64,000 nt of DNA from a virus (IMGVR_UViG_3300037067_015585:1-64000); one strand, 5' to 3'; numbered from the stretch's first letter, positions 7,145 through 25,329 are shown. Program-made: numbers and translations. Notes: generated from the letters alone by a model not told the origin.

Positions 7145-7942
7145 TCATTCGTCGTTTTTTGGCTTCTTCGGATTCTTACTGGTCTTTGCAATCCTTGCAC
7201 ATTCTTGAGCCATGAACGCCAATGGCAATCGGCTACTACTCTTCTTATTGTAAATCGATTCAATCATGTTTAAAAAGCCATCGATATTCGGCTTCAAATC
7301 ACGCATTGCGCGATTTACTTCGAAACGATGGAAGAATTGGTTGATATCGAATTCATCAACCAACAGCAACATGCGAATCGCAGTGACGAAAAGGGTGTTC
7401 GATGCATGATCGAACCCGGCAGCTTTGCATCGTTTGATAATATCAGCGATTTGCTGGGCATACTTCATTTTGGTAACAGTGAAGTCACCCCTCTTGAATT
7501 CTGACATGTCAGACTTGCCGGTCAAGATTGATACCGCACAACTTATAGTAACTCCGGTGTGGGTAACATAATCGGCGGCAATCTGATATTGCGCACTTTG
7601 TTTGTCGCCTAGACGGCAATATGACTCCAAATAGTCCCTCGTAGACCACGGGCGAGTTGCACCTTCCAATTCATGAATTGTTGCATTATCATTACAGATA
7701 ATATAAAAGACTGGTATACCCAATTCCTTAGCGGCAGTAAGCCGATGGTGTCCGGCTTTGATCTCAAGCTTGCCATGTGAATTCTTTGTGACATGTAATG
7801 GGTATGCTGGGATATACCCATGCTCACGCATCGATGCCATGAGCTTGTTAATTTTCGTAACGTCTCTGTTGAATTTCGATAATTCAAAGAGACCGTAATC
7901 TTTGGTTGCAGCGAGTTTCGGCGATAATGACTTCGGTTTCAT
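7145..7942 (-). CDS. ParB/Srx-like N-terminal domain protein
   Basis: NR.V...KL..SM...G...P..V....I.AGHHRL.AAKELG.PV..II motif. Confidence 0.8.
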   Translation of the reverse strand: MKPKSLSPKLAATKDYGLFELSKFNRDVTKINKLMASMREHGYIPAYPLHVTKNSHGKLEIKAGHHRLTAAKELGIPVFYIICNDNATIHELEGATRPWSTRDYLESYCRLGDKQSAQYQIAADYVTHTGVTISCAVSILTGKSDMSEFKRGDFTVTKMKYAQQIADIIKRCKAAGFDHASNTLFVTAIRMLLLVDEFDINQFFHRFEVNRAMRDLKPNIDGFLNMIESIYNKKSSSRLPLAFMAQECARIAKTSKNPKKPKNDE

Positions 7943-8520: not shown

Positions 8521-10587
8521 TTATTTCGTTACACCATTGTATGGCCCCACTAGTGACAACGCTTGCATTTTATTAATATTATTGGTATATAACCAATTTT
8601 CCTGCATTGCCGATATCTTGCCACGTAGTGCCTTTGGTGAGAAATCAAATTGTGCGCTCGGTCCATTATTAAATATTCTTGCATTAAATCCTGCCACCAT
8701 CGCACCAATTATAAATGCACCGTGTGAGATTGACTTATTGGGTGAATATGGTTCGACAAGACTTTTCAAAGCGAGACTCGGCTCACAAAAACTGTTAATT
8801 TTGTGTGTTTTGCGTACATCAGCAAGCAATTTTGCAATGAATTTTATGTCGTCTGCACTATTAATTAACATATCAGTGTCATTTTTTGTGCGTTCGTCAC
8901 CGAAGCCATCAATATTGAGTGTGGGATATTTAGTTAGGACTTCGCAGATTTGATTGAGCAGCTTCTCTCTAGCTTTCTGTTTTTGCTTTTCCGTTGTGAC
9001 TGTCTTAATTGATAGTCTACAACATCCAGTGAACATCTTTGTTAGTGATTTACGTATTTTTTGTGGTTTTCTTACGACTTCGTCGTAAAATTCAGCATTT
9101 AATCCACTAGATTCAGCGGTACTAATCAAGAGTTGCATCCAGCGTTTATATGTCTCGTTCTCCAAGATACTATTAGGTGCTATTATAAAATTCCAAACAA
9201 ACAATACCTGGCCAGAACGACCTGCTGCATCTATTACAAGTATGCATAAATCTTGCCAAAATCTGGTGTTAGAATCAGCCAAACAAATAATTGAATCGTA
9301 TGATATTACTGACGGTTTGTGCCATAATTGTTGTATATGTAGGAATTCTGTATCAGGATAGGCATGAGCACCACTAGGAATAGGCTTATTGAGCACACTA
9401 CGATCAACATTATTATATGAATTAGGTCCGAATTTTATGCCACCGTCGATAAGATGCTTGTGCTCGTGCCATTCTCTACCACCAAGAGTCCAAAATTCAC
9501 GATTAGCGGAAAATCTCGTTAAATCATAATATCGTAGTACTTCCAATAAATAATCTCGATATTTATTTAGACCCTTATAATGGTCTGGTCTATTATTAAT
9601 CCCTAACTCGCGATACCAAAACCAATCGCGAACTCCTTCTGTGAATTCGGCGTCATATTGTGGGCTTTTGCTGTCGGTGAATCTCCTCAAACTCCAATAT
9701 AGTCGATATTCTATTGGATCTTTCGCTGTCACATTTGGCCTATCAACACCAGCTCTAACCATCTCTAATAGCTTATCTTTTATCTTTCTTTGCTTTTCAT
9801 CTTTGGTTTCGAGCCACAATGGCGATATTTTTCTAAGTTTATCTATAAAAACAGCATCATAATGCTCGCTTTTGTGATTTGTAAATTTATGAAGTTCATG
9901 ACTAAGTTTTTTGTTTGTCGACGGAATTGGTTTATCTGCACCACTTTCCGCTAATTGTAAAAGTTGTACCTTATATTCATCTGGCGTTATTCGCTTGGAA
10001 AACCAACTCGGAGCAAGACTACTAATTTCTGCTTTGAAAACAGGATCATAATTGCTTTTAGAATTCTTGCTGCAATATAGACAAAGAGCGCTAGCCAAAA
10101 CAGACTCGTCATGGCTGGCACGTTTTTGTTTCGGCCTTGGTTTACCACTTTTCGCCAATTCTATTAACTTGTGTTTTTTGATTAATACAGAATCTTTAAA
10201 CCACCCAGGAGCAAGTTTACGAATTTTATTGGCAAACTGTTCGTCTCGGCCTGGGCCATTATTTACATAGTTATTGAATGACTGCCCAAGCCTGCGTTCA
10301 ATGATATCATTAGAAGTGCTGCTTGGTCTCGGTGCCCCAGCAGCAGCTAGTGCCAATAATCTCTCACGCCGACTACTGCGTTCATGCCTACTACTCTGTA
10401 AACTCTTCCGCTCTTTCCAGTCTGTAAACCAACCAGGCTGTATGGTACGAATCTCAACATCAAATTCGGCATCATATGAGCTACCTCTATGAGTATAATT
10501 ATGTAACGCCTGTGCAAGTTTTCGCTCATCGCGATTATTACTTTTTCTATTTGGTTTTTTTACTGGTAAATATTCTGATATCATCAT
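8521..10587 (-). CDS. repeat protein: SEYLPV leader + 5 PDWF-type repeats + putative methyltransferase-like domain + wHTH-like domain
   Basis: repeats end in PGWF/PSWF/PLWL/RDWF; EFWTLGG..EW.E / YNNVDR / VISYD domain shared with both helicases; C-terminus paralogous to 4367..4813. Confidence 0.8.
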   Translation of the reverse strand: MMISEYLPVKKPNRKSNNRDERKLAQALHNYTHRGSSYDAEFDVEIRTIQPGWFTDWKERKSLQSSRHERSSRRERLLALAAAGAPRPSSTSNDIIERRLGQSFNNYVNNGPGRDEQFANKIRKLAPGWFKDSVLIKKHKLIELAKSGKPRPKQKRASHDESVLASALCLYCSKNSKSNYDPVFKAEISSLAPSWFSKRITPDEYKVQLLQLAESGADKPIPSTNKKLSHELHKFTNHKSEHYDAVFIDKLRKISPLWLETKDEKQRKIKDKLLEMVRAGVDRPNVTAKDPIEYRLYWSLRRFTDSKSPQYDAEFTEGVRDWFWYRELGINNRPDHYKGLNKYRDYLLEVLRYYDLTRFSANREFWTLGGREWHEHKHLIDGGIKFGPNSYNNVDRSVLNKPIPSGAHAYPDTEFLHIQQLWHKPSVISYDSIICLADSNTRFWQDLCILVIDAAGRSGQVLFVWNFIIAPNSILENETYKRWMQLLISTAESSGLNAEFYDEVVRKPQKIRKSLTKMFTGCCRLSIKTVTTEKQKQKAREKLLNQICEVLTKYPTLNIDGFGDERTKNDTDMLINSADDIKFIAKLLADVRKTHKINSFCEPSLALKSLVEPYSPNKSISHGAFIIGAMVAGFNARIFNNGPSAQFDFSPKALRGKISAMQENWLYTNNINKMQALSLVGPYNGVTK

Positions 10588-10598
10588 ATCTCTCGATA

Positions 10599-11924
10599 TT
10601 AGCTTTGGAACCAGTCTGGGCGAATAACACGAATCTGTTTAGTGAAGTCAGGATCAAAATGTCTGCCGCAAGTGTAATACGCCAACGCATGCCCAAGCTT
10701 TTTCTCAGCCTGATTTACCGATCTTTTGTTTGGTCGATTTGATCCACAAATAGCCATATCAAATAATTTCGCTTTAACAGCAGTACTTGTTGATATGAAC
10801 CATTCTGGCCTGATTGTATGAATTTGTTTATCAAAATCTGGATCATATCTAGCGTGATTCTTGTCGATATAATAGCACAACGCTGAGCCTAGTTTTCCAG
10901 AGCGTCTGGTAGGTCTTTTAGCCCCGCTCTTCGCTAATGTTATCAAATTTGCTTTATTTCTCTCAATTGCGTTCGCAAACCAATCTGGTCGAATAACACG
11001 CAACTGTTTATCAAAATTAAAGTCATAAATCTTGCTACGCTTGTTTGTGCAATAATAAAAAGTGATCAACATCCTCTTCTCTTCCATATCATCTGTTATA
11101 TATCTTGGCTTATCGGCTCCACTCTTAGCCAATTCTAACAATTTCAATTTCCTGATGTCTTTAAGGACCTCGAACCAATCTGGACGCAAGATGTGAATAC
11201 GCCTCGAGAAATCACGATCATACCGCTTACCATTCTGAGTAAGAGCACCAAGCAAATAACTTAACTTCTTTTCTTCTAGATCTTTAGAATATCGATCCGG
11301 TTTCTTGGCACCGCTAGCAGCGAGTTTAAGTAGAACATCCTTACGTAAGGCTACCTTGTCTTCAAACCAATCTGGCCGTATAAGCTGGAGTCGCTTAGTA
11401 AAATCAAGATCATACCCAGTTCCACCTTTTACTGTATAATCGATAAATCTATCGTACAATCTTCTCTCTAGTATATCAGAATGTAATCCTACCCCAGGTC
11501 TCGGTTTTCCAGTCTTCGCAAGCTCTAATATTTTATTTTTGTTTATAGCAGATCGATCAAACCAATCAGGGCGAAGTGCTCGAATTCGTACACAAAAATC
11601 TTGATCACCGGATCGATGCTTGTCGGTATATCCCTTTAATGCTACAGCCAATCTTTTTTCTTCACGGTTCTTAGATGAGCTACTTGGCCTTTTAGCTCCA
11701 CTACCAGCAAGTTCCATCAACTTTTTCTTATTTTCAATAGGTGTTGGTATTATAGTGGTAAACCAACCAGGTTGCAAGACACGAATCTCAGCATTGAATT
11801 CTGAATCATAACTTCCACTAAATTTATAGGTATAGTTCCGAAGCAACCGTGCAAGTTTTCGTTCCTCGCGATTCTTGCTAGTAATGCTTGGCCGCTTTAT
11901 TGGAAGATATTCAGACATTATCAT
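10599..11924 (-). CDS. repeat-only protein: SEYLPI leader + 7 PDWF-type repeats
   Basis: seven units ending in [QR]P[GDE]WF; ATGA-coupled to the upstream helicase. Confidence 0.85.
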   Translation of the reverse strand: MIMSEYLPIKRPSITSKNREERKLARLLRNYTYKFSGSYDSEFNAEIRVLQPGWFTTIIPTPIENKKKLMELAGSGAKRPSSSSKNREEKRLAVALKGYTDKHRSGDQDFCVRIRALRPDWFDRSAINKNKILELAKTGKPRPGVGLHSDILERRLYDRFIDYTVKGGTGYDLDFTKRLQLIRPDWFEDKVALRKDVLLKLAASGAKKPDRYSKDLEEKKLSYLLGALTQNGKRYDRDFSRRIHILRPDWFEVLKDIRKLKLLELAKSGADKPRYITDDMEEKRMLITFYYCTNKRSKIYDFNFDKQLRVIRPDWFANAIERNKANLITLAKSGAKRPTRRSGKLGSALCYYIDKNHARYDPDFDKQIHTIRPEWFISTSTAVKAKLFDMAICGSNRPNKRSVNQAEKKLGHALAYYTCGRHFDPDFTKQIRVIRPDWFQS

Positions 11925-14900
11925 CCAACTTTCAGTACCGAGTCGATTCTAGTTAGTTTGCAACATCCAGCAAGCATTGGTGTCTTTGATGTTGGTCGCT
12001 TAGTAATCTGCCCTTCTCCATAGAAATCAGCCTCCAATCCTTCTGATTCAGCAAATCCGTCTAGTAACTGTAGCCATTGATGATAAACACCCCTTTTGAT
12101 CGGATCATATCTAGTGTGTATTGTGTAGCCTTCCATAAAATTCCAAAAAAACAAGACACATCCAGACTTCTTGGCAGCGGTAATAGCAAGATAACACAAT
12201 TCCTGCCAATATCCAGTGCGAGATTTAACCATACCGATTGTCGCGTCATAGCTAATAACGCGTGGGTTTTTCCATTTACTCCATAAATCTTGGATAGATA
12301 AGAACTCGCGGTTCGGATGAGCACAAACTCCTTCTGGTGCCTTGTCGATTACACCTCTGTCAACATTATGATAAGCATCACGCCCAAATTTAATGCCAGC
12401 ATTAACAAGATGCTTAAGTTCATACCATTCACAACCACCAAGAGTCCAGAATTCATTATCGTAGAATTCGGTGAAGCCATAATAATTCAGAGCTTTAACT
12501 AAGAACTCGCGATATTCATTTTTACCGGCATACTTGCCACGCTGTGGCTTCTTACTGCGTGTAAACCAATCTGGACGAAGAAATCGGATCTGCCTATCAA
12601 AAGCCGAATCGTACAATCCACTGGGGCGATTAATATATTGGCTAAGAGCACTCCCAAGGCTTTTTTCCTCTAGATTTTTCGAACTCTGTTTTGGTTTTTT
12701 GGCTCCGCTCTTTGCCAATTCTAGTAATTTGGCTTTTTTTATGTCTGCTGTATTTTCGAACCAATCTGGACGAAACTCTCGGATTTGTTTGTCAAAAACG
12801 TGATCGTAACTTCCAATTTTTCCAATTTTTTGTATAGTATAATTGGTTAATGCAACTCCCAATTTTCTTTCTTCCAAATCTTTTGCGTGCTGGTTTGGGC
12901 GTTTTTCACCAGCTTCTGCTAACAACATTAACATATTCTTTTTTAGTATTGTTGTATCTTCAAACCAGTCTGGTCGAATGGAACGTATTTTGGTATCAAA
13001 AACAGGATCGTAAGTATCACTACTTTTGGTAGTGTAATCCGTTAGTGTGACTCCCAATTTCCTCTCTTCCAGATCTTTTGCGTGCTGGTTTGGGCGTTTG
13101 ATTCCGATCATGTTTGCTAATTCTATTAATTTCGTTTTATTTGTATTAGTGGTATCTTCAAACCAGTCTGGTCGAATGGAACGTATTTTGGTATCAAAAA
13201 CAGGATCGTAAGTACCATCAACTGTAGTATAATTGGTTAATGCAACTCCCAATTTTCTTTCTTCCAAATCTTTTGCGTGCTGGTTTGGGCGTTTTTCACC
13301 AGCTTCTGCTAACAACATTAACATATTCTTTTTTAGTTTCGAAGTTTTCTCGAACCATCTCGGACTAATAGAACGAATCTTGGTATCAAAATCAGAATCA
13401 TGTGAACAACTATTTTTGTTAGTATAATTGCACAACGCTCTACCGAGACGTTCTTCGGTGCGATCTCTACTACTGTTATTCGGCCTTTTTCCTCCACTTT
13501 TCGCCAATGCAATAAGTTTTCTTTTGTTTTCTCTTGCTGAATTTGCGTTGAATTTAAATAATAACTTCTCGACTTCATCGAAATTACTCATTCCGTTGAT
13601 GATCCCAAAAATATCTGTGATACCAATCACTTTCAGTTTTTTGATTTCCTCTTTGATCTCCGGATCATTCATAAACTCACTGAAAGACATCTTACTAAGT
13701 CGCCGATCGCGTTTACGAATAATATCTTCAAGCGCCTTACGATCATTCTTGGGGATGACTTCATTCTGCATCAATATGCTGATAGCTAAAATGGGGCTTA
13801 CCTCGATACCGCGTTTGGCATGAAGATCGTGGAATAATTTTATCAACTCATCAGCAGATGCACCAGAGGCTGATTCTCGCAAGACTCGTTGAAGAACATC
13901 ATTGTTCTCCAACATATTCACCTTTAATCTGAATTGTTCTCTTTCTTTGTCAACTACTGCACGATATCGCTGCGGTACCGTTAACATAAATGTGTCGGTA
14001 AAATCTAGACCACTACAGATAGCCTTAATTCTTATAGCAACCTGTAAATTGGCATTTTTGACCACATCCTGATCTTCGTCATCAAGACTAACCTCAAAGA
14101 TGACGACCCTAGATAGATTGGGCGACGGATGGTTTGGGCAATTTCTCTTTGATCGTAAAGCACGTCCCATACATCGCTGTACAAATCGCTGTAGAGAACC
14201 AGTTAATCGTGGGTTGAAGGTTTGGGCACATTCGACCCAATCCATACCCTCATCAAAAAGTTTGATGGCTATGATAATATCATAGCCTCTTGAAGAATTT
14301 GCCAGATCAGCGAGCCTATCGGAATGTACTTTCTTCCTGTTTGAAATAAGTATATCGCCGTCGTCTGATCCAAAATTGAGCACTCTAGCATCCTTGCATT
14401 TGTTTTGTAGAATTAGCTTAAGTGCAAATGCCTGCTTGGCACTATCGACATACATGATTGTCGGAAGCGGTTTCTTTTTATATTCATCGACGTATGCTTT
14501 TAATAATTCTGGGTAATTCATTGCGTCCAGGAGTTCTGGCTTATCAGATATATCATCGGTCTTCGACAATTGATCAAAATCTACCCTATTAACGGCATGA
14601 TAAAATCGCAGAAATACGCCGAAATCAGGGCAGCATCCCTCGTGGTGATGATCTTTCAACAGTCGTCTAAATCTAACAAACTCCTCTGACGTCGGCTGCC
14701 CTCCGTCACTACGGAAGTCTGTCGCCGTGAAAGCATGAACCTCAGAGCACCTGCTAACGCAATCTTTAAGAATAGAACCAAGAGAGTTTTCGTCCTTCAT
14801 ATCACTGTGATGGACTTCATCAACAAGCAAGACTACATTAGATAAGTCGATTGTTTTGTCTTTAAGAGCCAGTTTAAATGCTCGATAACTTGAGATGCGA

Positions 14901-15349
14901 ATAATTGCACTATTATATCTCAAAAAATCCTTCATCTCTTTCGATTTATGAGCATCACTTTCATAAATCGAACCCTTCTTTATTGTATATCTTGCTATTT
15001 CTTTGGCGTCTTTGTCTATTCCATCTTTCTCGATAGCACACCAGTCGCAGTCCTTGACATATTTTGTGAAATTATAATTAATACCAAGCTGCGGCGTTAT
15101 GATGACAACTTTCTTGTATTGTTTGACAGACGCAGCATAACATAGCATTATGGCCGTCTTACCACTGCCTGTCGGCGATTCGGTTATCGTGTAACGATTG
15201 CTCTTGATGTGATCGAGCATTCGTCTCTGATATTCCAGAAGTTCTATTGTAGATTTATTAACCTCCTTATCAACAATGACAGGCACAATAGACTTGATTT
15301 TGATGCCACCGGCAAGTATGCTCTCTCGGACAGTGATAGTTTTATTCAT
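11921..15349 (-). CDS. SF2 (type III Res/SSL2-like) helicase + 5 PDWF-type repeats + putative methyltransferase-like C-terminal domain
   Basis: ESPTGSGKT, LLVDEVHH, FTATDFR, LFDEGMD, QRCMGRALR motifs, followed by repeats and the EFWTLGG domain. Confidence 0.85.
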   Translation of the reverse strand: MNKTITVRESILAGGIKIKSIVPVIVDKEVNKSTIELLEYQRRMLDHIKSNRYTITESPTGSGKTAIMLCYAASVKQYKKVVIITPQLGINYNFTKYVKDCDWCAIEKDGIDKDAKEIARYTIKKGSIYESDAHKSKEMKDFLRYNSAIIRISSYRAFKLALKDKTIDLSNVVLLVDEVHHSDMKDENSLGSILKDCVSRCSEVHAFTATDFRSDGGQPTSEEFVRFRRLLKDHHHEGCCPDFGVFLRFYHAVNRVDFDQLSKTDDISDKPELLDAMNYPELLKAYVDEYKKKPLPTIMYVDSAKQAFALKLILQNKCKDARVLNFGSDDGDILISNRKKVHSDRLADLANSSRGYDIIIAIKLFDEGMDWVECAQTFNPRLTGSLQRFVQRCMGRALRSKRNCPNHPSPNLSRVVIFEVSLDDEDQDVVKNANLQVAIRIKAICSGLDFTDTFMLTVPQRYRAVVDKEREQFRLKVNMLENNDVLQRVLRESASGASADELIKLFHDLHAKRGIEVSPILAISILMQNEVIPKNDRKALEDIIRKRDRRLSKMSFSEFMNDPEIKEEIKKLKVIGITDIFGIINGMSNFDEVEKLLFKFNANSARENKRKLIALAKSGGKRPNNSSRDRTEERLGRALCNYTNKNSCSHDSDFDTKIRSISPRWFEKTSKLKKNMLMLLAEAGEKRPNQHAKDLEERKLGVALTNYTTVDGTYDPVFDTKIRSIRPDWFEDTTNTNKTKLIELANMIGIKRPNQHAKDLEERKLGVTLTDYTTKSSDTYDPVFDTKIRSIRPDWFEDTTILKKNMLMLLAEAGEKRPNQHAKDLEERKLGVALTNYTIQKIGKIGSYDHVFDKQIREFRPDWFENTADIKKAKLLELAKSGAKKPKQSSKNLEEKSLGSALSQYINRPSGLYDSAFDRQIRFLRPDWFTRSKKPQRGKYAGKNEYREFLVKALNYYGFTEFYDNEFWTLGGCEWYELKHLVNAGIKFGRDAYHNVDRGVIDKAPEGVCAHPNREFLSIQDLWSKWKNPRVISYDATIGMVKSRTGYWQELCYLAITAAKKSGCVLFFWNFMEGYTIHTRYDPIKRGVYHQWLQLLDGFAESEGLEADFYGEGQITKRPTSKTPMLAGCCKLTRIDSVLKVG
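12835..13337. repeat. exact intragenic DNA duplications: 113 bp (12835-12947 = 13225-13337) and 63 bp (12954-13016 = 13152-13214)
   Basis: nucleotide-identical segments read directly; offsets 390 and 198 are in frame. Confidence 0.9.
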
Positions 15350-15354
15350 GATTG

Positions 15355-15422
15355 GTTATAACGTGAAACTGTGTTGATGTTAATTTGCAGCTGGTCATAG
15401 CACGAAATGATATAAATGTTAA
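15355..15422 (-). promoter_or_regulatory. tandem promoters TTAACA-N17-TATGAC (15394-15422) and TTAACA-N17-TATAAC (15355-15383)
   Basis: duplicated ATGTTAATTTGC 12-mer; CGTGC before the distal -10; proximal -10 lies 5 nt from the ATG. Confidence 0.55.
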
Positions 15423-16816
15423 TTTGCGAAAGGGCCTTTTTTGCGTATAGGGAACCAGTCTGGTCTGAGCTCTGAAATTTTCTTATCGAATGCCGCATCA
15501 TATTGCTTGCAGTAGCCACTGGTATATGAATATAATAACGCGCTAAGTTTACGTAATTCAGGACATTTTTGCGATCTCGAAGGCTTATCTTTGCCGCTCC
15601 TAGCCATATTCAACAGTTTATCTTTATTGATCGATGAACTAGCTATAGACCGCTTACCTTTTTGAATATTAATTGTGTTCTTAAACCAATTTGAATTTAT
15701 AGAGAGAATCTGCTCATAAAACTTTTGATTAGTTAAATTCTTTCTTCCAAATGGAGATGTATAACTAATCAATGCTTGGCCAAGTTTACTTTCTTCTTGG
15801 TTCGCCGAAAATGAGTTTGGGCGTTTTGCACCATTTCTTGCCAATTCCAGTAATCTAAATCTTTTATTATCGGCATCTTTCATAAACCATTCTGGTCTAA
15901 TTGAACGAATCTTGTCAGCTACGGAGCCACCACAAGATAAACGATTAGATAATGCTCTACCAAGCCGTCTCTCTTCTGCGTTTTTAGACCTCCTGTTTGG
16001 TCTTCTACCACCATTTTCAGCCCAGTTTAATAACGCTTCATCAATAAGTTTGGCTGTATTCCATTCTGGTCGAATCGCAAAGATCTTCTTAGTAAACGCA
16101 TCATCATATTGTTTGTTTGGATTAGTATATCTATTTAATGCTTGGCCTAAACGTGCAACCTCACGATTAGTAGAACATGAGTTTGGTCTGGTCGCTCCGG
16201 CTTTTGCTAATTCAAGGAGTTTTTCTTTCTTTAATACTGATCGCTTTTCTATCCAATCTGGACGCAAAGCGATCAGTTGTTGTTTGAAAATCGCATCATA
16301 CTGTTGCCGTTTTTCGGCAAAATAACACACCAATGCACTTCCTAGTCGTCTTTCCTCGGGATCTCGCGATTTTCCGCTCGGCCTTTTCTTGCCAGTAGCA
16401 GCCCATTCTAATATTTGGGCTTTGTTAGCTGCCGCCGTGTCTTTGAACCACTGTGGCGCAGCTGATTTAATCGCATCGCAAAAAGCAGAATCGTATTTGT
16501 GTCCATTGCGTTTTCTTAGATAATCATTAAGTATTCCAGCTAATCTCTTTTCCTCAACATTTACTGAACTGATACTTGGCCTATTATTACCACTTCTTGC
16601 CAGTTCCAACAATTTACGCTTATTTTCTCTAACTGCACTTGCGTTTTTATTGAACCAATCTGGCTGTAGAAGACGAATTTCGCCGTCGAATGCAGCGTCA
16701 TACCATTTACTATTCTTGCTAGTCAGAATATATAATGCACGTGCAAGTCTTCGCTCATCGCGACTTTTGCTGCTGAGGCTTGGTCGTTGCACTGGTAGGT
16801 ACTCAGATTCAATCAT
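15419..16816 (-). CDS. repeat-only protein: SEYLPV leader + 7 PDWF-type repeats
   Basis: repeat consensus; TAATG coupling to the upstream gene. Confidence 0.85.
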   Translation of the reverse strand: MIESEYLPVQRPSLSSKSRDERRLARALYILTSKNSKWYDAAFDGEIRLLQPDWFNKNASAVRENKRKLLELARSGNNRPSISSVNVEEKRLAGILNDYLRKRNGHKYDSAFCDAIKSAAPQWFKDTAAANKAQILEWAATGKKRPSGKSRDPEERRLGSALVCYFAEKRQQYDAIFKQQLIALRPDWIEKRSVLKKEKLLELAKAGATRPNSCSTNREVARLGQALNRYTNPNKQYDDAFTKKIFAIRPEWNTAKLIDEALLNWAENGGRRPNRRSKNAEERRLGRALSNRLSCGGSVADKIRSIRPEWFMKDADNKRFRLLELARNGAKRPNSFSANQEESKLGQALISYTSPFGRKNLTNQKFYEQILSINSNWFKNTINIQKGKRSIASSSINKDKLLNMARSGKDKPSRSQKCPELRKLSALLYSYTSGYCKQYDAAFDKKISELRPDWFPIRKKGPFAN

Positions 16817-18129
16817 TATTTATGCTTAAACCAGTCTGGACGAATACTACGAAGTTTCGCATCAAATTCAGGATCATATCGGCGATCGCTCTTTTTTGCG
16901 TAGCTATGGATTGCGTTATATAGAGCATGTGACTTATTTGGTTTCACTTCTCCGTTTTTGGCCATTTCAAGCAATTTTTGTTTTTTAGCAGCCACTTTAC
17001 CAAACCAATCTGGTCGTAGTGCATAGATCTCTTTATAAAATTCTGGATCATAACAAGACAAATTGACTTTTTTGTTAGTATATGTTATAAAAGCTCCACC
17101 AAGTTTGTTAGTTGGTCTTTTAGATCCACTTTTCGCTAATTCTAGTAATTTTTGCTTATTTTTACACACTCTATCGTGTGCTCTACCAAACCAGTCGGGT
17201 CGAAGCCTACGTATTTCTACTGCGAATTCGTGATTCCTGCTTACATATGCTTTCAGAGCTTCACCCAAACGCCGTATGTGAAGGTTTTTAGATCCGGCAT
17301 TTGGCCTGTCATCACCATCCCTAGCCATTTTCAATAGTTCTTGTCTTTTGGCTTCCGCCACAGTCAATGTATCAAACCAATCAGGTCGTATTTTACGAAT
17401 CTCAATATCAAATTTCAGATCATAGCTTAAGCATTGCTTGTATGTATATCTGGATAATTCTGCTGCATAACGTTTTTCAGAAGCTTCCCAAATTCTCGGC
17501 TTTCTCTTTCCACTACGAGCCATTTCAAGCAATTTTTGTTTTTTTGGTATTGTTGGATCTTCATATACATACCAATCTGGGCGAAGTTCCCGAATTTTTC
17601 TGGTGAATTCGGGATGGTGTTTCTCGTAATTACGTAATGCCGCACCGAGACGTTTTATGTCTACATCTTTCGATTTTTTAGGATCTTCGCCGCCACTTCT
17701 AGCTATCTTCATTATCATTCGCATATTCTCTTGTACATTTCTTATTGTACGACAAGAACGCCAACGCGGCTGCAAAGCAAAAATCTCCGCAGCGAATTCT
17801 GCGTCGTAGTTTTTATTAGGTGCAGTATGTCTATATAATATGCCTGCAAGGCACCTTTCATCTACGTTCTTTGATGATATACTCGGCCTTTTTTCTCCAT
17901 TCTTGGCCATCTCAAGCAATTTTCGCTTGCTTTCGTTTATGTCGATCTTAGAATTAGTGTTAGGCTTCCATTGTGGTTGAATAGCAAAGATTTCAGTAGC
18001 AAAGCTTTCATCATAACTTCCACTTCCAGGTGTAGTATATCTGCGCAATGCTTCTGCGGAATGACGCTCACAACAATTCTTACTATCACGGCTTGGCTTT
18101 TTTACTGGTAAATATTCAGTCTTAATCAT
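16816..18129 (-). CDS. repeat-only protein: TEYLPV leader + 7 PDWF-type repeats
   Basis: repeat consensus; ATGA coupling to the upstream gene. Confidence 0.85.
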   Translation of the reverse strand: MIKTEYLPVKKPSRDSKNCCERHSAEALRRYTTPGSGSYDESFATEIFAIQPQWKPNTNSKIDINESKRKLLEMAKNGEKRPSISSKNVDERCLAGILYRHTAPNKNYDAEFAAEIFALQPRWRSCRTIRNVQENMRMIMKIARSGGEDPKKSKDVDIKRLGAALRNYEKHHPEFTRKIRELRPDWYVYEDPTIPKKQKLLEMARSGKRKPRIWEASEKRYAAELSRYTYKQCLSYDLKFDIEIRKIRPDWFDTLTVAEAKRQELLKMARDGDDRPNAGSKNLHIRRLGEALKAYVSRNHEFAVEIRRLRPDWFGRAHDRVCKNKQKLLELAKSGSKRPTNKLGGAFITYTNKKVNLSCYDPEFYKEIYALRPDWFGKVAAKKQKLLEMAKNGEVKPNKSHALYNAIHSYAKKSDRRYDPEFDAKLRSIRPDWFKHK

Positions 18130-18602
18130 TTGTTAAACCAGTCTGGTCTTAGGGCACGAATCTTAGCATCAAACTTATCATCGTATGTCTTTCGACTTTT
18201 GTTTGTGTAATTGATCAATGCACGACCAAGATGATGCTTCGCGCTATTTGGCCGCGAAGAACCAGTTAAAGCCATTGCGAGCAGCTTTTGTTTTTTAACT
18301 GCTGCCATATCATCAAACCAATCCGGCCTTAATTTGCGGATTTCTGCGTCAAATTCAGAATCATAGCTGCCAGCATTTGAATAACGTTTTAATGCCGTCC
18401 CAAGAGTCTCGTTTTTACCAGGCCGCTTTTCTCCATTTGCGGCCATACACAATAAACGACATTTATTTTCAACAGCAGATTTACCAATACCTGTTTCGAT
18501 CATTTCGACCGACACACCACTAGTACGGAGTTGTTCAATCAAATTCTTTTGATAATCTGTTAACATATTACATTCTTCTATTTTGATTATTTCTTGAACC
18601 AA
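18126..18602 (-). CDS. short protein with 2 PDWF-type repeats (start probably MLTDYQ at 18566)
   Basis: two repeat units; N-terminus MLTDYQ...IETGIGKS resembles a truncated helicase Q-motif/Walker A. Confidence 0.75.
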   Translation of the reverse strand: MVQEIIKIEECNMLTDYQKNLIEQLRTSGVSVEMIETGIGKSAVENKCRLLCMAANGEKRPGKNETLGTALKRYSNAGSYDSEFDAEIRKLRPDWFDDMAAVKKQKLLAMALTGSSRPNSAKHHLGRALINYTNKSRKTYDDKFDAKIRALRPDWFNK

Positions 18603-19084
18603 TCAGATCGCATGGTGCGTACTTTCTTATCGAAATTCGCATCGTAATCCTTACACCTTTTGTCAGTAAATCTGATCAATGCACGTCCAAGATATTGTTC
18701 CTTGACGGCAGCATCATAAACTTCTTCGGCTAATTTGCGTTCCTTGGCCGAAGAAGTTTGAAGTGGATTCTTTTTATAATAGTTCCATTTCCTGCTGTTT
18801 GGTCGTGCAGATCCATCAGCCGCCATCTTCATCAATTCTTTTTTAATCACCGAAGCAGTCTTTGGTTTGGAACCGCCAAACCAATCTGGCCTCAAAAAAC
18901 GAATTTCCCTGTTAAAATTGACGTCGTATGGGCTGTTGCATCGGCAGTATCGTAGTAACGCCAGTTTAAACTCGTTCTTCTTTCTTGGCCTATCGGCCCC
19001 ATCTTTTGCAAGTTCGAGAAGCTTCTGCTTGTTCTGCTTTATAACGTTCTGGTCGTGCGGTTCTGGCTTCTTTTTCTTTGACAT
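18587..19084 (-). CDS. short protein with 2 PDWF-type repeats
   Basis: two repeat units; AAAGGGA RBS; first gene after the consensus promoter. Confidence 0.8.
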   Translation of the reverse strand: MSKKKKPEPHDQNVIKQNKQKLLELAKDGADRPRKKNEFKLALLRYCRCNSPYDVNFNREIRFLRPDWFGGSKPKTASVIKKELMKMAADGSARPNSRKWNYYKKNPLQTSSAKERKLAEEVYDAAVKEQYLGRALIRFTDKRCKDYDANFDKKVRTMRSDWFKK

Positions 19085-19105
19085 TTCATATCCCTTTATA
19101 AGTTA

Positions 19106-19133
19106 AATGCACCGGGGACGTCCCCGGTGCATT
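19106..19133. promoter_or_regulatory. perfect 28-bp GC-rich palindrome AATGCACCGGGGACGTCCCCGGTGCATT (operator or 5' hairpin)
   Basis: exact self-reverse-complement; overlaps the predicted TSS of the 19136-19164 promoter. Confidence 0.75.
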
Positions 19134-19135
19134 CC

Positions 19136-19164
19136 ATTATAACACGGCGAAAAATTGCTGTCAA
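19136..19164 (-). promoter_or_regulatory. consensus sigma70 promoter TTGACA-N17-TATAAT with extended -10 TG
   Basis: perfect consensus, intergenic, upstream of 18587..19084. Confidence 0.85.
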
Positions 19165-19197
19165 TACCACTAATGGGGTATTATATATCTAGTCCAT

Positions 19198-20439
19198 TTA
19201 AGCCTTCTGTAACTGCCTGTTAAACCACTCAGGACTAAGTGCACGAATTTCGACGTCGAAATCTAGATCATAACATTCGCTACTTTTTGATGTGTAGCTT
19301 GCCAAAGCCCAAAGAAGACGCTTTTCTGCTATATCTCCCGACCTACTTGGCTTTTTGACTCCTGATTTAGCCATTTCTAATAGTCTCTGTTTCTTTAAAG
19401 CCGTTTTTTCGAACCAATCAGGGCGAAGTGTGCGAATTTCGGCGTCGAATTCTGGATCATATTGCGTTTTGTTACTGTTTGTGTAGCGTGCAATAGCAGT
19501 GCCTAAATTTGTTAATTTACAAGATGGTCTCTCTTCTCCTTTTCTTGCCATTTCTAGTAATTTTTGTTTCTTTAAAGCAGACGAAGTTCTAAACATTGAG
19601 CCGTCTGGCTTTCTAATAAAAGTTTCGAACCAATCAGGGCGAAGTGTGCGAATTTCGGCGTCGAATTCTGGATCATAACTAGTTCGCGCATGACCACTAC
19701 GTGTATAGTTTTTCAATGCTATCGCAAGACGTGATTCTGATATTTCTAAAGGGCTTGATGGATGGTTAAAATTAGTTGGTCTTCCCTCTCCATTCCTAGC
19801 CATTTCTAATAGCTTTTGTTTTTTTGCTGCTACCATCTGCTTTTTTACTATTGTTGTTACAGAATTTTCAAACCAATCGTGGCGAAGTTTATGAACCTCT
19901 ATATCGAATTCTAGATCATAACAACTACTATTCTTATTAATACTGCGACTCAACACTCTATTTAAATGCTCTTCTGATTTCTCGTTTGGCTTTTTATCTC
20001 CATTCTTAGCCATTTCCAGTATTTTTTGTTTTTTTACAGCTGTTAAATTTGGTTTTGCAGCCCATTCTGGCCGTATTTCGCGAATCTGTCTATCAAATTC
20101 TGGATCATAGCTACTACTGTTTTTATGTATATAGCAGCACAACGCACCAGCAAGTTTTCTTTCCAAAACTTCTGACGGCCCAGATGGATGTGAAAGATTA
20201 AGCGGTTTTCTGGCTCCACTCTTAGCCATTTCTAATAGCTTTCGCTTTATAGGCGCTGATTTAATACGGCGAGCAAGCCAATGTGGTTGTAAAGCTAGAA
20301 TTTCCGCAGTAAATTCGACATCATAGCTTACACTATTCTCTGTAGTATATCTGCGTAACGATTCTGCAAGTTTTCGCTCTTTGTGGCTACTGCTGTTACG
20401 GCTTGGTCGTTTTACTGGCAAATATTCAGATTCTACCAT
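19198..20439 (-). CDS. repeat-only protein: SEYLPV leader + 6 PDWF-type repeats
   Basis: start MVESEYLPV at 20439; repeat consensus. Confidence 0.85.
   Translation of the reverse strand: MVESEYLPVKRPSRNSSSHKERKLAESLRRYTTENSVSYDVEFTAEILALQPHWLARRIKSAPIKRKLLEMAKSGARKPLNLSHPSGPSEVLERKLAGALCCYIHKNSSSYDPEFDRQIREIRPEWAAKPNLTAVKKQKILEMAKNGDKKPNEKSEEHLNRVLSRSINKNSSCYDLEFDIEVHKLRHDWFENSVTTIVKKQMVAAKKQKLLEMARNGEGRPTNFNHPSSPLEISESRLAIALKNYTRSGHARTSYDPEFDAEIRTLRPDWFETFIRKPDGSMFRTSSALKKQKLLEMARKGEERPSCKLTNLGTAIARYTNSNKTQYDPEFDAEIRTLRPDWFEKTALKKQRLLEMAKSGVKKPSRSGDIAEKRLLWALASYTSKSSECYDLDFDVEIRALSPEWFNRQLQKA
19407..19677. repeat. exact 55-bp intragenic duplication (19407-19461 = 19623-19677) encoding YDPEFDAEIRTLRPDWFE
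   Basis: nucleotide identity; offset 216 is in frame. Confidence 0.9.
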
Positions 20440-20461
20440 ATAATAAATCGTTGGCAAAGTA

Positions 20462-21262
20462 TTATGTATCTAAACCACTTGTAGCGGCAAGATCTAAACC
20501 GAGAGCCTCCTTATACGATTCTTTCCATCGCACTTTTGGCTCATTACTTAATTCAATGTAAACCTTTTTAACTGATTTATGAGTCTGGCCGTCCCTGATA
20601 CGTTTTATTTCTTCCTTTGATACTCCACTAACCCTCTTGCTAATCCGATTCATCTTTCCAATCCAAATGGAATCAGTCACAAAAGGCTCTATGATATCAA
20701 ATAGTTTTCGGACGTTTTCAACGTCAAGAAGAGGCTCACAGCTAATGCTTGTGGCGTAACCAGCCTCATGTGCAAATCGTAGTGATTTGAGCCGTTCCTT
20801 AAAATTTGGTGCGTCTGGTTCCCATATGCTCAAAATTCGATCATCCATACTACCTATACTAAACCGAAACAAGATTTTCTTGTGAAAAATCTCGAATCGA
20901 TTACAAATGCTTTTGATGCATTTTAGATGTGGCTTACTCACAATCAGTATCTCGTTGCCAGCCATCAGCAATTTCTCAATCACTTTCAAGCACGAATCAA
21001 GTACGTTTGGTGTAATGTCATGAGCAGTCGGAAACATAATGCGACCACCAGCAATCAATTTCCTATTTTTAGAAACTTCACCTATGCGAATGATAGGAGT
21101 TTTCCAGTCGCCCGCCGATTTGATTCGTCGAAATCGTATAGCTTGTGCTCTAGCATAGCAATAACGGCAATCATGCTCACATCCAGTCATACAATTCACA
21201 GATGCAACTGACCATTCCCTAGTTCCACTTATGCGTGTCTTCTCGTCATTTTGTTTAGCCAT
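20462..21262 (-). CDS. radical SAM protein (DUF5131/Gp37-Gp68- or SPL-like)
   Basis: N.MTGCEHDCRYCYA (CxxxCxxC), WEP.AP...ER, S.EP.L, WIGKMN; TAATG-coupled to the helicase stop. Confidence 0.8.
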   Translation of the reverse strand: MAKQNDEKTRISGTREWSVASVNCMTGCEHDCRYCYARAQAIRFRRIKSAGDWKTPIIRIGEVSKNRKLIAGGRIMFPTAHDITPNVLDSCLKVIEKLLMAGNEILIVSKPHLKCIKSICNRFEIFHKKILFRFSIGSMDDRILSIWEPDAPNFKERLKSLRFAHEAGYATSISCEPLLDVENVRKLFDIIEPFVTDSIWIGKMNRISKRVSGVSKEEIKRIRDGQTHKSVKKVYIELSNEPKVRWKESYKEALGLDLAATSGLDT

Positions 21263-24200
21263 TAAGCTGTTTTCTGTGCTGCTTGCACTAATGTGAGCTT
21301 GCAACATCCAGCAAGCATCGGTGTGTGTGATTTTTTACGTTGTGTGATTTGCCCGTCTTTGTAAAAATCAACTGAGATACCACTATGTTCAGCCAAATCT
21401 TCCATTATTTGTATCCAATTGTCATATAAATCTGTGTCTATTGTATTATACATCTTATTGGCGTATCCAACCATAAAATTCCAAACAATCAGCGCATTTC
21501 CTGATTTCTTTGCTGCAGATATACCGAGGTGGCATAGCTCTTGCCAAATACCAGTATTGGATTGAACTAAAGCGACGGTACTATCATACGATATGACGGC
21601 TGGCTTATTCCACAATCGATGAATATCAGAAAATTCTGTATTTGGATGGTGACATACAGATATATCTAATAATTCTTTCAATTCTTCTCGATCAACATTA
21701 TGATATGAAGTCGGTTTGAATGATATACCAGTCTTCACCAAATATCGGTATTCATGCCATTCCGATCCACCAAGAGTCCAAAATTCATGATCTGTTGTGA
21801 ATTTTGTGAATTTATAATAATTCAATACTTCCAACAAGAAATCGCGATATTTATTTGGACCAGCGTATCGATCACCATTCTTTCTATAAATAAACCAATC
21901 TGGTCGAAGTTCGTGGATTTGCCTATCAAATCCAATATCATAACATCGATGTTGCGGATCTGTATAATGATATAATGATCTCCCAAGGCTTGTGTGGGAT
22001 AATGGTCGTCTCGAATCTGTTTTAGCGAGCGACAAAAGCTCCGATTTTCTATTTATAACAGCACCAAACCAAGATGGTGCAAGCTTATTGATCTCATCAC
22101 AAAAAGCCTGGTCATAATAAGGGCCTTCGCTATTTGAAAAGCGGCAAAACCATATTGCAAGAGTCCTCATCTTGCGATCGTGAGAGGTCTTTCTAGGTTG
22201 TTCTGATTTATTTTTAGCAATCTGTAGTAATTCTCGTTTCTTCTTTCTGGCGACATTAATAGATCTACTATCGAACCAGTCTGGACGCAGCTTCTTGAGT
22301 TCATTATGAAATTCTAGATTATATCCACGATTGTTCTTATTAATATAGCTACTTAGAGCCATGCCGAGAGGTGTATTTTGACACGGCCTATCACCGCCAT
22401 CTCTAGCTATTTTTATAATTTTCTTTCTTTTATCCGGTGCATAATTAACGAACCATTGTGGAGCAATAACACGCAACTCTTTATCAATCCAAGGAATATG
22501 CTTATGCATCAGCATCGCCATACTTTTCTCTTCTTGGTTGCGCATACTAGGCTTATTTAGGCCAGATTTGGCTCTATCTATTAGCTTCTTACCGGTTTCT
22601 TCGATCGTTTTGACGAACCACCGAGGCGCAAGAGTTCTAATTTTATGATCAAAGTCAGGATCATATATTTTGTTTTTTGGATTAGTATAACTTCCGAGCG
22701 CAACGGCTAATGCATTTCTGTGCTTGTGATTAGTTGTCGGACGTTTTTCACCATTGCGAGCCATCTCTAACAATCTATCCTTCTTTTCGATTGCTGTATT
22801 TATAAACCACGCAGGGGCTGCAAGGCGAATCTCATGCATAAAATCTTGATTAATTCGACAATAATTATTCATTACAACAGCCAGCCGACGCATGTTGGCG
22901 TCATCAGACCCAGTACTAGGACGCTCAGCACCGCTGTAAGCTAGTCGTAGCAGCTCTTTTCTATTCTCTTCTGCAGAGTCAACGAACCAATGTGGTGCCA
23001 AAAAACGTACCTTCTCAGTAAAATCTCGATCGTAAGTGTTAGCTTTTGGATCGATATAACGGCAAAACTTTGCCCACAATCGTTTTTCCTCGTCAGTAGA
23101 ATGCCAATTGTTATTGTTAGTTGGTCGGCGTATTCCACGCTTAGCCATAGACAATAATTTTTTCTTGTTTTCTAATGCTGTATTAATAAACCATTGTGGG
23201 GCTAAACGTCGTACTTTCTTGTCGAAAATAGATCCACGATGTGTCGAATTTGTGAATTTCGATAGCACAGATGCTAATGCACGTATATGGGTGTCATCAC
23301 TATTTTGTAATGGTCGTTCACCGCCACTTCTCGCCAAATCAATAATCTCATGTTTTTTCTTTGCCAGCTTATCTTCAAACCACGACGGTGCCATAGCGTG
23401 AATTTTTATATCAAATTCATGATCGTATGTATTGGAATGCACACAAGTATAATTTACTAATGCAGTTGCAAGTCGGCGTTCCTCAGAATCTGGATTATTG
23501 ATGTGCTTGTTTGACGGTCTATCTGCACCGTTCTTAGCCAAAATAAATAATTGCTCTTTATTGTGATCTGCTGAATTTCTAGTATAATCAACCAGCATCC
23601 TCGCTATTACATCGAGGTCATTCCGACCACTGAGAATTCCAACAAAATCAGAAACACCAATTACTCTAAGCTTAGCAATTTCTTCTGCGTATTCTGCGAC
23701 GAATCCAGCGAACGATCTTATTTCAAGATTCTTATCTCGAAGTCTTATGGCCTCTTTGAGATCGATCACATCAGCTTTGTCGATTACACCAGTTTGCATC
23801 AGCAATCCTGTAACAACATCACCGCTAAGTTCGATTCCTTTTGAAGCATATAAATCGTGACACAAAATTATCAATTCTGCGGCAGACGCACCTGTTGTTG
23901 CTTTATATAGAAGCTTCTGTAAAATTTCGGTATTAATAGATACATTCGATTTTGTTCTCAATCTGGTTCGTTCAGATTCAAACCTGTGCCGATGCTTTCC
24001 TGGCAGTTCTAATATGAAAGTATCGGTGAAATCGAGGCCCTCACATATCGCCTTCAAGACGATAGCCATTGGTAGGAATGCCTTCGTAACTTCATCTCTG
24101 TCATGATCATTCAAACTGATTTCAAATATTACGACTCTTGAGTAAAACGGCGACACATGTAATTTCCGTTTTCGCCGTAGTGTCCGTCCTATGCACCTTT

Positions 24201-25329
24201 GCATGAAGAGTTGAAGTGAGCTTGTTACTCTAGGTGAGAATGTCTGTGCACATTCTGCCCAATCAACTCCCTCGTTGCAAAGCTTGATCGATATTACAGC
24301 ATCAATATCTAGTGGCATATCAGACAGGTGTGTAAATTTAATCTTGCACAACTTACCATTATCTGATACTAACGCAATACCGTCGTCAGAGCCAAGATTC
24401 AAGATCTTAAGATTTGGTAGTTTTACTAACAACATTCTCTGTAATGCGTTTGCCTGCTTCGCATTATCGACATACATCATAGTCGGCAGCGGATTTTTCT
24501 CATATTCATCTACATAGGCTTCTAATAAAGCCTTCGGATCACCTATGTTCTTGCCGTTGGCCATCTTTTCAAAATCAACTTTGTTTACACTGTGGTAGAA
24601 TCTAGCAAATACTCCGAAATCGGGGCAAAATCCCTCAGAATAATGCTGCGCCAGTGTACGCCGATATTTATGAAAATCTTTTGGTACTGGACAACCACCG
24701 TCAGTACGAAAATCTGTAGCTGTAAAGCAATGAACTTCACTGCATTTTTTATTACAAGTTCTCAATATCGATCCGAGATGACTAGCATCTTTCTCGACAT
24801 CACTATGATGGACTTCATCGACAAGCAGAACAACATCAGAAACATTCGCACCAGTATCCAGAGCCATTTTAAAAGCTCTGTAAGTAGCGACATAGATTGA
24901 ATTGTCTGGACCGCTCAAAAATTGTTTTAATGCTTTTGTTTTATGTTTCTTTGGCTCTTCAACTATTCCACCATGTGGAACGACATATTCACGGTTGCTA
25001 CCTTTTGCACAGAATCTTGAATGTGCTACATATTTGCGAAAATTATGATTGATTCCAAGCATTGGCGTTATGATGACTGTCTTCTTACCTTTTTCAGACG
25101 ACAGAGCGGCATAACTTAACATTATTGAAGACTTACCAGAACCAGTCGGAGATTCAGTGAGCGTATGTCGATTTTTCGACAGATGATCTAAGATGATGTC
25201 GTTCTGAAATTGCCACAGCGTTATCGTCTTGACTGTCCTATTGCCCAAAACGATCGTCTTCACAGGCTTATCACCAGCCAAGACACGATTCTTTACGACA
25301 ATCGTTTTCTGATCTAATCCCATAATCAT
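21262..25329 (-). CDS. SF2 helicase + 9 PDWF-type repeats + putative methyltransferase-like C-terminal domain (paralog of 11921..15349)
   Basis: ESPTGSGKS, LLVDEVHH, FTATDFR, LCNEGVD, QRCIGRTLR; repeats; EFWTLGG.EW.E / YHNVDR / VISYD / TPMLAGCCKL. Confidence 0.85.
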   Translation of the reverse strand: MIMGLDQKTIVVKNRVLAGDKPVKTIVLGNRTVKTITLWQFQNDIILDHLSKNRHTLTESPTGSGKSSIMLSYAALSSEKGKKTVIITPMLGINHNFRKYVAHSRFCAKGSNREYVVPHGGIVEEPKKHKTKALKQFLSGPDNSIYVATYRAFKMALDTGANVSDVVLLVDEVHHSDVEKDASHLGSILRTCNKKCSEVHCFTATDFRTDGGCPVPKDFHKYRRTLAQHYSEGFCPDFGVFARFYHSVNKVDFEKMANGKNIGDPKALLEAYVDEYEKNPLPTMMYVDNAKQANALQRMLLVKLPNLKILNLGSDDGIALVSDNGKLCKIKFTHLSDMPLDIDAVISIKLCNEGVDWAECAQTFSPRVTSSLQLFMQRCIGRTLRRKRKLHVSPFYSRVVIFEISLNDHDRDEVTKAFLPMAIVLKAICEGLDFTDTFILELPGKHRHRFESERTRLRTKSNVSINTEILQKLLYKATTGASAAELIILCHDLYASKGIELSGDVVTGLLMQTGVIDKADVIDLKEAIRLRDKNLEIRSFAGFVAEYAEEIAKLRVIGVSDFVGILSGRNDLDVIARMLVDYTRNSADHNKEQLFILAKNGADRPSNKHINNPDSEERRLATALVNYTCVHSNTYDHEFDIKIHAMAPSWFEDKLAKKKHEIIDLARSGGERPLQNSDDTHIRALASVLSKFTNSTHRGSIFDKKVRRLAPQWFINTALENKKKLLSMAKRGIRRPTNNNNWHSTDEEKRLWAKFCRYIDPKANTYDRDFTEKVRFLAPHWFVDSAEENRKELLRLAYSGAERPSTGSDDANMRRLAVVMNNYCRINQDFMHEIRLAAPAWFINTAIEKKDRLLEMARNGEKRPTTNHKHRNALAVALGSYTNPKNKIYDPDFDHKIRTLAPRWFVKTIEETGKKLIDRAKSGLNKPSMRNQEEKSMAMLMHKHIPWIDKELRVIAPQWFVNYAPDKRKKIIKIARDGGDRPCQNTPLGMALSSYINKNNRGYNLEFHNELKKLRPDWFDSRSINVARKKKRELLQIAKNKSEQPRKTSHDRKMRTLAIWFCRFSNSEGPYYDQAFCDEINKLAPSWFGAVINRKSELLSLAKTDSRRPLSHTSLGRSLYHYTDPQHRCYDIGFDRQIHELRPDWFIYRKNGDRYAGPNKYRDFLLEVLNYYKFTKFTTDHEFWTLGGSEWHEYRYLVKTGISFKPTSYHNVDREELKELLDISVCHHPNTEFSDIHRLWNKPAVISYDSTVALVQSNTGIWQELCHLGISAAKKSGNALIVWNFMVGYANKMYNTIDTDLYDNWIQIMEDLAEHSGISVDFYKDGQITQRKKSHTPMLAGCCKLTLVQAAQKTA

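Follow-up and report, generated by a model that had tools for sequence, protein, structure and literature searches.

What kind of protein is encoded three times over in the first 64 kb of the virus contig IMGVR_UViG_3300037067_015585, and what might it do for the phage that carries it? The contig, from IMG/VR, is 234 kb long (CheckV completeness 64%), and its first 64,000 nucleotides, the whole stretch of DNA analysed, are referred to here as the window. The element in question is a domain of about 200 residues that follows an array of tandem repeats in the proteins P0001, P0002 and P0003, the last two of which also carry a superfamily 2 (SF2) helicase, and a first-pass annotation had taken it for a divergent class I S-adenosylmethionine (SAM)-dependent methyltransferase. 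We document the triplication of the domain, its predicted fold, the position of its conserved residues on the canonical cofactor-binding elements of that fold, and a conserved coupling to helicases. On balance we think it probable, from the model and from gene context, that the domain is an active methyltransferase using SAM and that the helicase and the repeats bring it to nucleic acid, with DNA favoured.

The domain family and its predicted fold

The three copies are clearly related, as the first-pass annotation had it. Any two of them are 46.9-54.6% identical across 190-196 aligned positions (BLASTP E 1e-62 to 1e-78), with copies 2 and 3 at 54.6% and copy 1 at 47-50% to the other two, and a profile of the three, run over the 234-kb contig, finds just these three sites (E 1e-109 to 1e-118). 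The limits first proposed for them were off by at most about 25 nt, and the motifs listed at that time are all present, the single deviation being YNNVDR for YHNVDR in P0001. The domain had been described as directly following the last repeat, and in all three proteins it does indeed start about 10 residues past the final ...P.WF of the array.

A hidden Markov model search of 1.84 billion cluster representatives gave 31 proteins at E<=1e-3, of which 26 also passed E<=1e-10; the majority are free-standing proteins some 200 residues long. Six further clusters came from a second database, and the few hits that carry a name in their source are all "hypothetical". In the searches made, the family was found solely on phage-like or metagenomic contigs.

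Comparison with annotated families was uniformly negative. No Pfam family matched the domain at E<=10 or matched any of the 31 members, and no NCBIfam family was matched at E<=1 by any of six members, the three window copies among them. For the whole proteins PHROGs gave no credible match inside the domain, just a 32-residue stretch of P0003 with phrog_2707 (E 7.8e-4), and PADLOC gave helicase matches only, with none for the domain. There was likewise no match for the domain in a profile search of PDB sequences, nothing for it when P0002 was compared by tblastn and megablast with 50,697 GenBank phage records, and no match in a literature search for its motifs. Nor did scanning 185,579 species genomes with a sequence pattern find anything, though the pattern is narrow and this is weak evidence of absence. 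Finally, hhalign profiles were built from genome-fetched genes for five families (30 RlmE, 10 SpeE, 9 RlmI, 5 Methyltrans_SAM and 15 COMT-like sequences); E. coli RlmE as the query of a protein search gave near-identical sequences only, which were of no use for a profile. None of the five aligned significantly with the domain (P 0.2-0.74). The domain defines a rare, unannotated and very divergent new family, and its kinship to known transferases is visible only at the level of predicted structure.

AlphaFold2 gave a poor model from the three window copies alone, with a predicted local distance difference test score (pLDDT) of 55. With the 31-sequence alignment, copy 2 was modelled at pLDDT 94.5 and a predicted template modelling score of 0.91. 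The elements of this model are a helix at residues 9-21, strand b1 at 30-34, a helix at 40-47, b2 at 57-60, b3 at 73-75, a helix at 80-86, b4 at 93-103, a helix at 106-126, b5 at 128-136, a helix at 152-166, b6 at 169-173 and b7 at 189-198, and their order is that of the class I fold, an alternating alpha/beta sandwich with a C-terminal b6-b7 hairpin. The motifs fall on the strands in the order foreseen, with EFWTL as b1 followed by G-G, YHNV as b2 followed by D and VISY as b4 followed by D, and the proposed terminal hairpin is made by b6 and b7.

A wide search of PDB structures gave class I SAM-dependent transferases for all 50 of the 50 matches listed, with 156-182 of 200 residues aligned. 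The best among the matches listed were RlmM (4atn, Z 13.7, root mean square deviation (rmsd) 3.1 A over 168 residues), TT1512 (Z 13.7) and spermine synthase (Z 13.6). Foldseek with the isolated domain gave 116 PDB matches at E<=1e-3, and re-alignment of its top 1000 put spermine synthase (3c6m) at Z 14.0, PH1915 at 13.9 and RlmM at 13.7, which is a tie; the top structural matches have rmsd 3.1-3.3 A across 166-176 of the 200 residues. In a search of the ESM Atlas five of the ten matches listed were FtsJ-family clusters, and the closest were unannotated viral clusters. Two Atlas searches also suggested PF28273 as a candidate family. Because the fold searches agree, the earlier prediction of a Rossmann-type methyltransferase fold is borne out, and to judge from the model the domain almost certainly has the class I SAM-dependent transferase fold. 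The substrate and chemistry cannot be read from the fold, because RNA methyltransferases and aminopropyl transferases tie within about 1 Z.

The column statistics for the 31 family members are instructive in this regard. After b1, L34 and G35 are invariant (100%) and the next residue is G or A in 30 of 31 members (97%), so that the glycine loop of motif I is present though degenerate, being G-[GA] instead of GxGxG. Position 61, right after b2, is D in 27 of 31 (87%), E in two and N in two, and this is where the class I fold has its canonical ribose-binding acid. E or D at 79 (90%) and F80 (100%) follow b3, D99 (97%) follows b4, N134 (97%) stands at the end of b5, and E41 and Y57 are present in all members. 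E38, three residues past the first loop glycine, is an acid in 81%, with K, H or C in some members. Searches by regular expression for [DNS]PP[YFW], PC, ENV and GxGxG were negative in each of the three copies, in agreement with the remark in the first-pass annotation that DPPY/NPPY and PC motifs are missing.

Class I methyltransferases bind SAM and substrate at the C-terminal ends of the strands, and it is there that the most strongly conserved residues of the domain lie in the AlphaFold2 model. Between P0002 and P0003 the domain is 54% identical, on a par with the helicase cores at 49%. The conservation pattern, as mapped on the model, argues for a working ligand site, for which G35, E41, Y57, D61, F80, D99 and N134 are candidate residues for mutagenesis. 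It is from the fold and from this placement of conserved residues that we infer a methyltransferase.

The helicase partnership and the layout of the locus

The helicase regions of P0002 and P0003 have the motifs GSGKT, DEVHH, TAT and QR..GR in their translations, and their best PHROGs family is phrog_16, "DNA helicase" (E 4.8e-24). The same association is found where the domain is a separate protein, as the gene of a stand-alone member comes immediately behind one for an SF2 helicase in five of five testable contexts, those being the contigs long enough to show the upstream gene, the others being too short. P0011 comes after a 949-aa helicase that has the repeats of the window proteins, and P0028 after a 745-aa helicase, each with an 8-nt overlap; P0041 follows a 1012-aa helicase and P0039 a helicase of at least 628 aa, each with a 4-nt overlap; and P0025 follows an 832-aa helicase after a 9-nt gap. 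A sixth member, P0007, comes after a gene for an uncharacterised product of 685 aa or more.

The helicase of P0002 is 30% identical over 618 aa to that next to the stand-alone P0011 (E 8e-71), and a second partner helicase compared with the fused one gave 26% over 431 aa (E 7e-17), so that by sequence alignment the partner helicases are homologous to the fused helicase. The natural gene split falls exactly at the domain boundary given in the first-pass annotation. In function the family is bound up with a single lineage of SF2 helicases. A co-fold of P0042 and P0028 with SAM gave an ipSAE of 0.37 against 0.00 for the best control, and was graded as weak support: that mark is reached by 58 of 80 solved complexes and by 2 of 110 mismatched pairs, and the range up to 0.60 holds just 7 of the 80 solved complexes and both mismatches. 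The runs share at least 85% of contacts, with a partner pLDDT of at least 77. This result adds little beyond the gene-fusion evidence.

Several of the contigs with the domain are 280-388 kb long, and the carriers are thus huge phages. One fused copy is present in each of two complete relatives (364 and 388 kb), and the three copies in the present phage are therefore a lineage-specific expansion. The window also includes a gene for a Gp23-type major capsid protein (32482-34080, minus strand; PF07068, E 1.9e-77), which places the phage among the huge phages with T4-like capsids.

The layout of the locus is given in Table 1. The genes surrounding the three domain copies are all on the minus strand. 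Six more genes among the helicase genes are mostly made of the same repeat of about 60 aa and match phrog_13199, and the repeat of P0002 is also present in P0035. The Pfam helicase-associated (HA) repeat family gave no match to the repeats at E<=0.1.

Table 1. Coordinates of the domain copies, the proteins that carry them and other genes discussed (window positions unless a contig is named; aa, amino acids; ORF, open reading frame)
Feature	Position	Strand	Remarks
P0001 ORF	8521-10587	-	688 aa; repeats, domain and tail of about 150 aa, without helicase
P0001 N-terminal repeat array, about five units	9583-10587	-	from translation
Domain copy 1, P0001 aa 336-534	8986-9582	-	profile match 9004-9585, E 2.4e-109
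P0001 C-terminal tail, 3' of domain	8521-8985	-	no family match; no Pfam match
P0002 ORF	11921-15349	-	1142 aa; SF2 helicase, repeat array, domain
P0002 SF2 (DEVH-type) helicase region, about aa 1-600	13550-15349	-	Pfam ResIII 1.4e-10, DEAD 3e-8
P0002 repeat array (about 60 aa per repeat) joining helicase to domain, approximate limits	12542-13549	-	from translation
Domain copy 2, P0002 aa 937-1136	11942-12541	-	profile match E 3e-111; sequence modelled with AlphaFold2
P0003 ORF	21262-25329	-	1355 aa; SF2 helicase, repeat array, domain
P0003 SF2 helicase region, about aa 1-620	23470-25329	-	Pfam ResIII 1.4e-9, DEAD 3.6e-9
P0003 repeat array, approximate limits	21877-23469	-	from translation; phrog_13199 match
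Domain copy 3, P0003 aa 1152-1349	21283-21876	-	profile match E 3.4e-118
Six repeat genes	10599-11924, 15419-16816, 16816-18129, 18126-18602, 18587-19084, 19198-20457	-	match repeat arrays of L006-L009
Radical SAM ORF	20462-21307	-	overlaps 3' end of P0003
Helix-turn-helix (HTH)-Mom protein	30513-32324	-	603 aa; HTH_38, Sigma70_r4; C-terminal PF25680, E 6.4e-20
ParB-like gene	7145-7942	-	phrog_12305, 5e-19; downstream of P0001
LemA-family gene	6484-7086	-	2.4e-56; downstream of P0001
TPM-domain gene	5701-6477	-	N-terminal methylation motif; downstream of P0001
AdoMet decarboxylase, outside window	G000:C1:192645-192959 (= L190:1435-1839)	+	134 aa; PF02675, E 3e-20

Neighbouring genes and the likely role of the module

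With regard to the nature of the substrate, the neighbouring genes lean weakly to DNA modification over RNA. On a 5-kb metagenome contig (L193:349-5004) a Mom-family protein (503 aa, E 6.9e-18, with a weak REase_MTES_1575 match), the 832-aa SF2 helicase and P0025 lie head to tail in an apparent operon, with the Mom-family gene directly upstream of the helicase and domain pair. Mom is the family of the DNA-modification enzyme of phage Mu. In the window an HTH-Mom gene lies about 5 kb upstream of P0003, and Mom-like genes number three in one complete relative (G063) and none in the other (G062). The DNA helicase label of phrog_16 leans the same way, as do the ParB-like gene and the radical SAM gene that flank the domain locus, the latter having weak matches, far below cut-offs, to the mobile pair B, PA0069, Rv2578c and spore-photoproduct-lyase models. 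When the neighbouring genes (radical SAM, ParB-like, the P0001 tail and others) were sought in the flanks of six related loci (L006, L007, L008, L009, L016 and L017) repeat proteins only were matched, and none of the other neighbours therefore counts as a conserved partner. Leaning to RNA there are Tpt1 (PTS_2-RNA) near the module in L008, and Thg1 and an RNA ligase on the 25.6-kb contig of P0041. Genes for an Apyc1-like (anti-Pycsar) protein, Tpt1, a SPASM-domain protein and ribosomal protein S21 were observed near the helicase and domain pair of L008:1-11292/L009.

We suggest a module of two parts, of which the domain would be the catalytic end and a specific SF2 helicase of DEVH type the other, with a tandem repeat array between them in this phage and its near relatives. 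The two parts would be joined in one polypeptide, as in P0002 and P0003, or made from adjacent genes, as in other huge phages. The helicase and repeats would bind nucleic acid and track along it, and the tethered domain would transfer the methyl group of SAM to that nucleic acid, DNA being favoured over RNA. The outcome would most likely be that the phage marks its own genome against host nucleases.

There are several points that weigh against this proposal. The NPPY, PC/ENV and K-D-K-E catalytic signatures are all absent, and Pfam, NCBIfam, PHROGs, the PDB profile search and hhalign give no link at the sequence level to any methyltransferase family. The loop after b1 is cut down to G-[GA] followed by the conserved acid E38, which is unusual for methyltransferases, and the fold comparison leaves RNA methyltransferases and aminopropyl transferases level. 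What leans to DNA in the gene context is circumstantial: neither the radical SAM nor the ParB gene was found in the flanks of four related loci.

A rival reading is an RNA methyltransferase that modifies ribose 2'-O or a base in partnership with an RNA helicase, its targets being perhaps tRNA, rRNA or phage transcripts. Most of the nearest named structures are RNA methyltransferases (RlmM, TlyA, FtsJ/MRM2/Spb1, RlmI/RlmO, TrmI and Trm14), and the RNA-repair genes near the module (Tpt1 in L008, Thg1 and RNA ligase on the P0041 contig) are in keeping with such a role. However, the K-D-K-E tetrad of the RrmJ-type 2'-O enzymes is absent because the family lacks a conserved Lys at any position: Lys reaches at most 42% in any column (13 of 31), and the only columns that are basic in at least 50% are 11, 19, 62, 181 and 182. 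PF01728, searched against the whole contig in six frames, misses all three copies, hhalign against RlmE gives P 0.35, the best family of the helicase is annotated as a DNA helicase, and the Mom-like neighbours are DNA-modification genes. We think an RNA methyltransferase unlikely, but would give it some weight. A mapping of R11, D99, N134 and T187 onto K-D-K-E was considered and dropped as unsupported, there being no significant alignment with RlmE either as the single E. coli sequence or as a profile. The sole match to the FtsJ model in the contig, at G000:C1:179366-179482 (minus strand, L004) outside the window, is below cut-off at 15.5 bits and sits in a 221-aa ORF unrelated to the three domain copies. 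The degenerate motif I, the lack of any known catalytic motif and the lack of sequence similarity to active families would also fit a dead methyltransferase fold, retained to sense SAM, to bind nucleic acid or to serve the helicase as a structural part. This we consider quite unlikely, as the best-conserved polar residues are at the C-terminal ends of b1-b5, where the fold binds cofactor and substrate, the domain is as well conserved as the helicase core, and it persists as a separate gene of about 200 aa in many phages.

The group transferred might alternatively not be a methyl group, but an aminopropyl or 3-amino-3-carboxypropyl group from SAM or decarboxylated SAM, giving a bulkier hypermodification of nucleic acid. 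Human spermine synthase is the top structural match (3c6m, rmsd 3.1 A, 168 residues aligned), and spermidine synthases and the 3-amino-3-carboxypropyl transferase TYW2 are also among the matches listed. The phage has an AdoMet decarboxylase but no match to PF01564, the aminopropyl transferase family, at E<=0.1 in the 234-kb contig, and the complete relative G063 shows the same pattern. In contrast G062, the other complete relative (388 kb, 99%), lacks an AdoMet decarboxylase although it has the domain, so a link between the decarboxylase (SpeD) and the domain, present in one complete relative and absent from the other, is not consistent and was rejected. Furthermore hhalign against SpeE gives P 0.2 with a poor alignment, the Z score is tied with those of many methyltransferases, and E38 is replaced by K, H or C in some members. 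A transfer of this kind is in our view improbable. Equally speculative is a broader reading, in which helicase, repeats and domain would together be a motor-driven DNA hypermodification enzyme of huge phages, with the repeats setting specificity. Variable repeat units would read the sequence, the SF2 motor would translocate, and the transferase would install on phage DNA a mark that could be a methyl group, or a bulkier group of aminopropyl type made with the phage's own decarboxylated SAM. If this were so, the three paralogues could represent three specificities against host restriction.

We return to a nucleic-acid methyltransferase as the reading that we prefer. Enzymes with the methyltransferase fold are the main means of marking nucleic acid in phages and bacteria, and the present family is labelled "hypothetical" wherever it is present because it is invisible to every sequence-based annotation resource tried. 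The catalytic signature of the domain fits no known class. Its constant pairing with a single lineage of helicases and, in this phage, with long and variable repeat arrays points, together with that signature, to a motor-delivered modification activity, perhaps a new means by which huge phages counter restriction or mark their genomes. From the 31-sequence alignment a profile for the family can now be built.

Comparison with known transferases and modification systems

It is of interest to compare the domain with the transferase classes that it most resembles or might be expected to resemble. At the place of motif IV after b4 the family has Y/F-D-S-T, in contrast to the [DNS]PP[YFW] of the DNA amino-methyltransferases (N6-adenine and N4-cytosine). 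Of the marks of a DNA cytosine-C5 methyltransferase, PC in motif IV and ENV in motif VI, neither is present in any of the copies.

The RrmJ/FtsJ 2'-O-methyltransferases (PF01728, which includes RlmE, RlmM, TlyA, MRM2 and Spb1) have the same compact class I fold of about 200 residues, with an N-terminal helix before b1, no long insertions and an Asp right after b4, and they are among the best structural matches (RlmM 4atn, Z 13.7; TlyA 5ks2, 12.4-12.6; FtsJ 1ej0, 11.6). The domain differs from them in having neither the K-D-K-E tetrad nor a loop of GxxPGGW type. The aminopropyl transferases provide the top or tied structural match, and share with the domain an acid three positions past the first loop glycine and a D-S-T string after b4. 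We take E38 to correspond to the Asp of the aminopropyl-transferase GGGDG loop, which keeps out the carboxylate of SAM, and the YDST after b4 presumably resembles their D-S-[ST]-D-P, but both are leads only. The domain has G-G-x-E and Y-D-S-T where those enzymes have GGGDG and DSxDP, and it is without their N-terminal beta-sheet domain.

There is also a likeness to TcmP (TIGR04474), the methyltransferase-like partner of three-Cys radical SAM proteins, in that a radical SAM gene adjoins the domain and overlaps the end of P0003. The domain differs from TcmP in that it has no NCBIfam match at E<=1, and the radical SAM gene is absent from the flanks of related loci.

As regards the whole module, the systems to compare are DarB of phage P1 and the Type ISP restriction-modification enzymes, which have a helicase or translocase and a DNA methyltransferase in one polypeptide. 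Their methyltransferase domains are of the gamma class of N6-adenine enzymes with NPPY or NPPW. That motif is absent here, the domain order of DarB is different, the recognition part of the present proteins would be a tandem repeat array, and no homology was detected. What P0002 and P0003 have in common with these enzymes is the combination in one large protein of an SF2 helicase-like motor, a domain with the methyltransferase fold and a separate, here putative, part for DNA recognition, and the analogy is thus a functional one, that of a motor-delivered DNA modifier.

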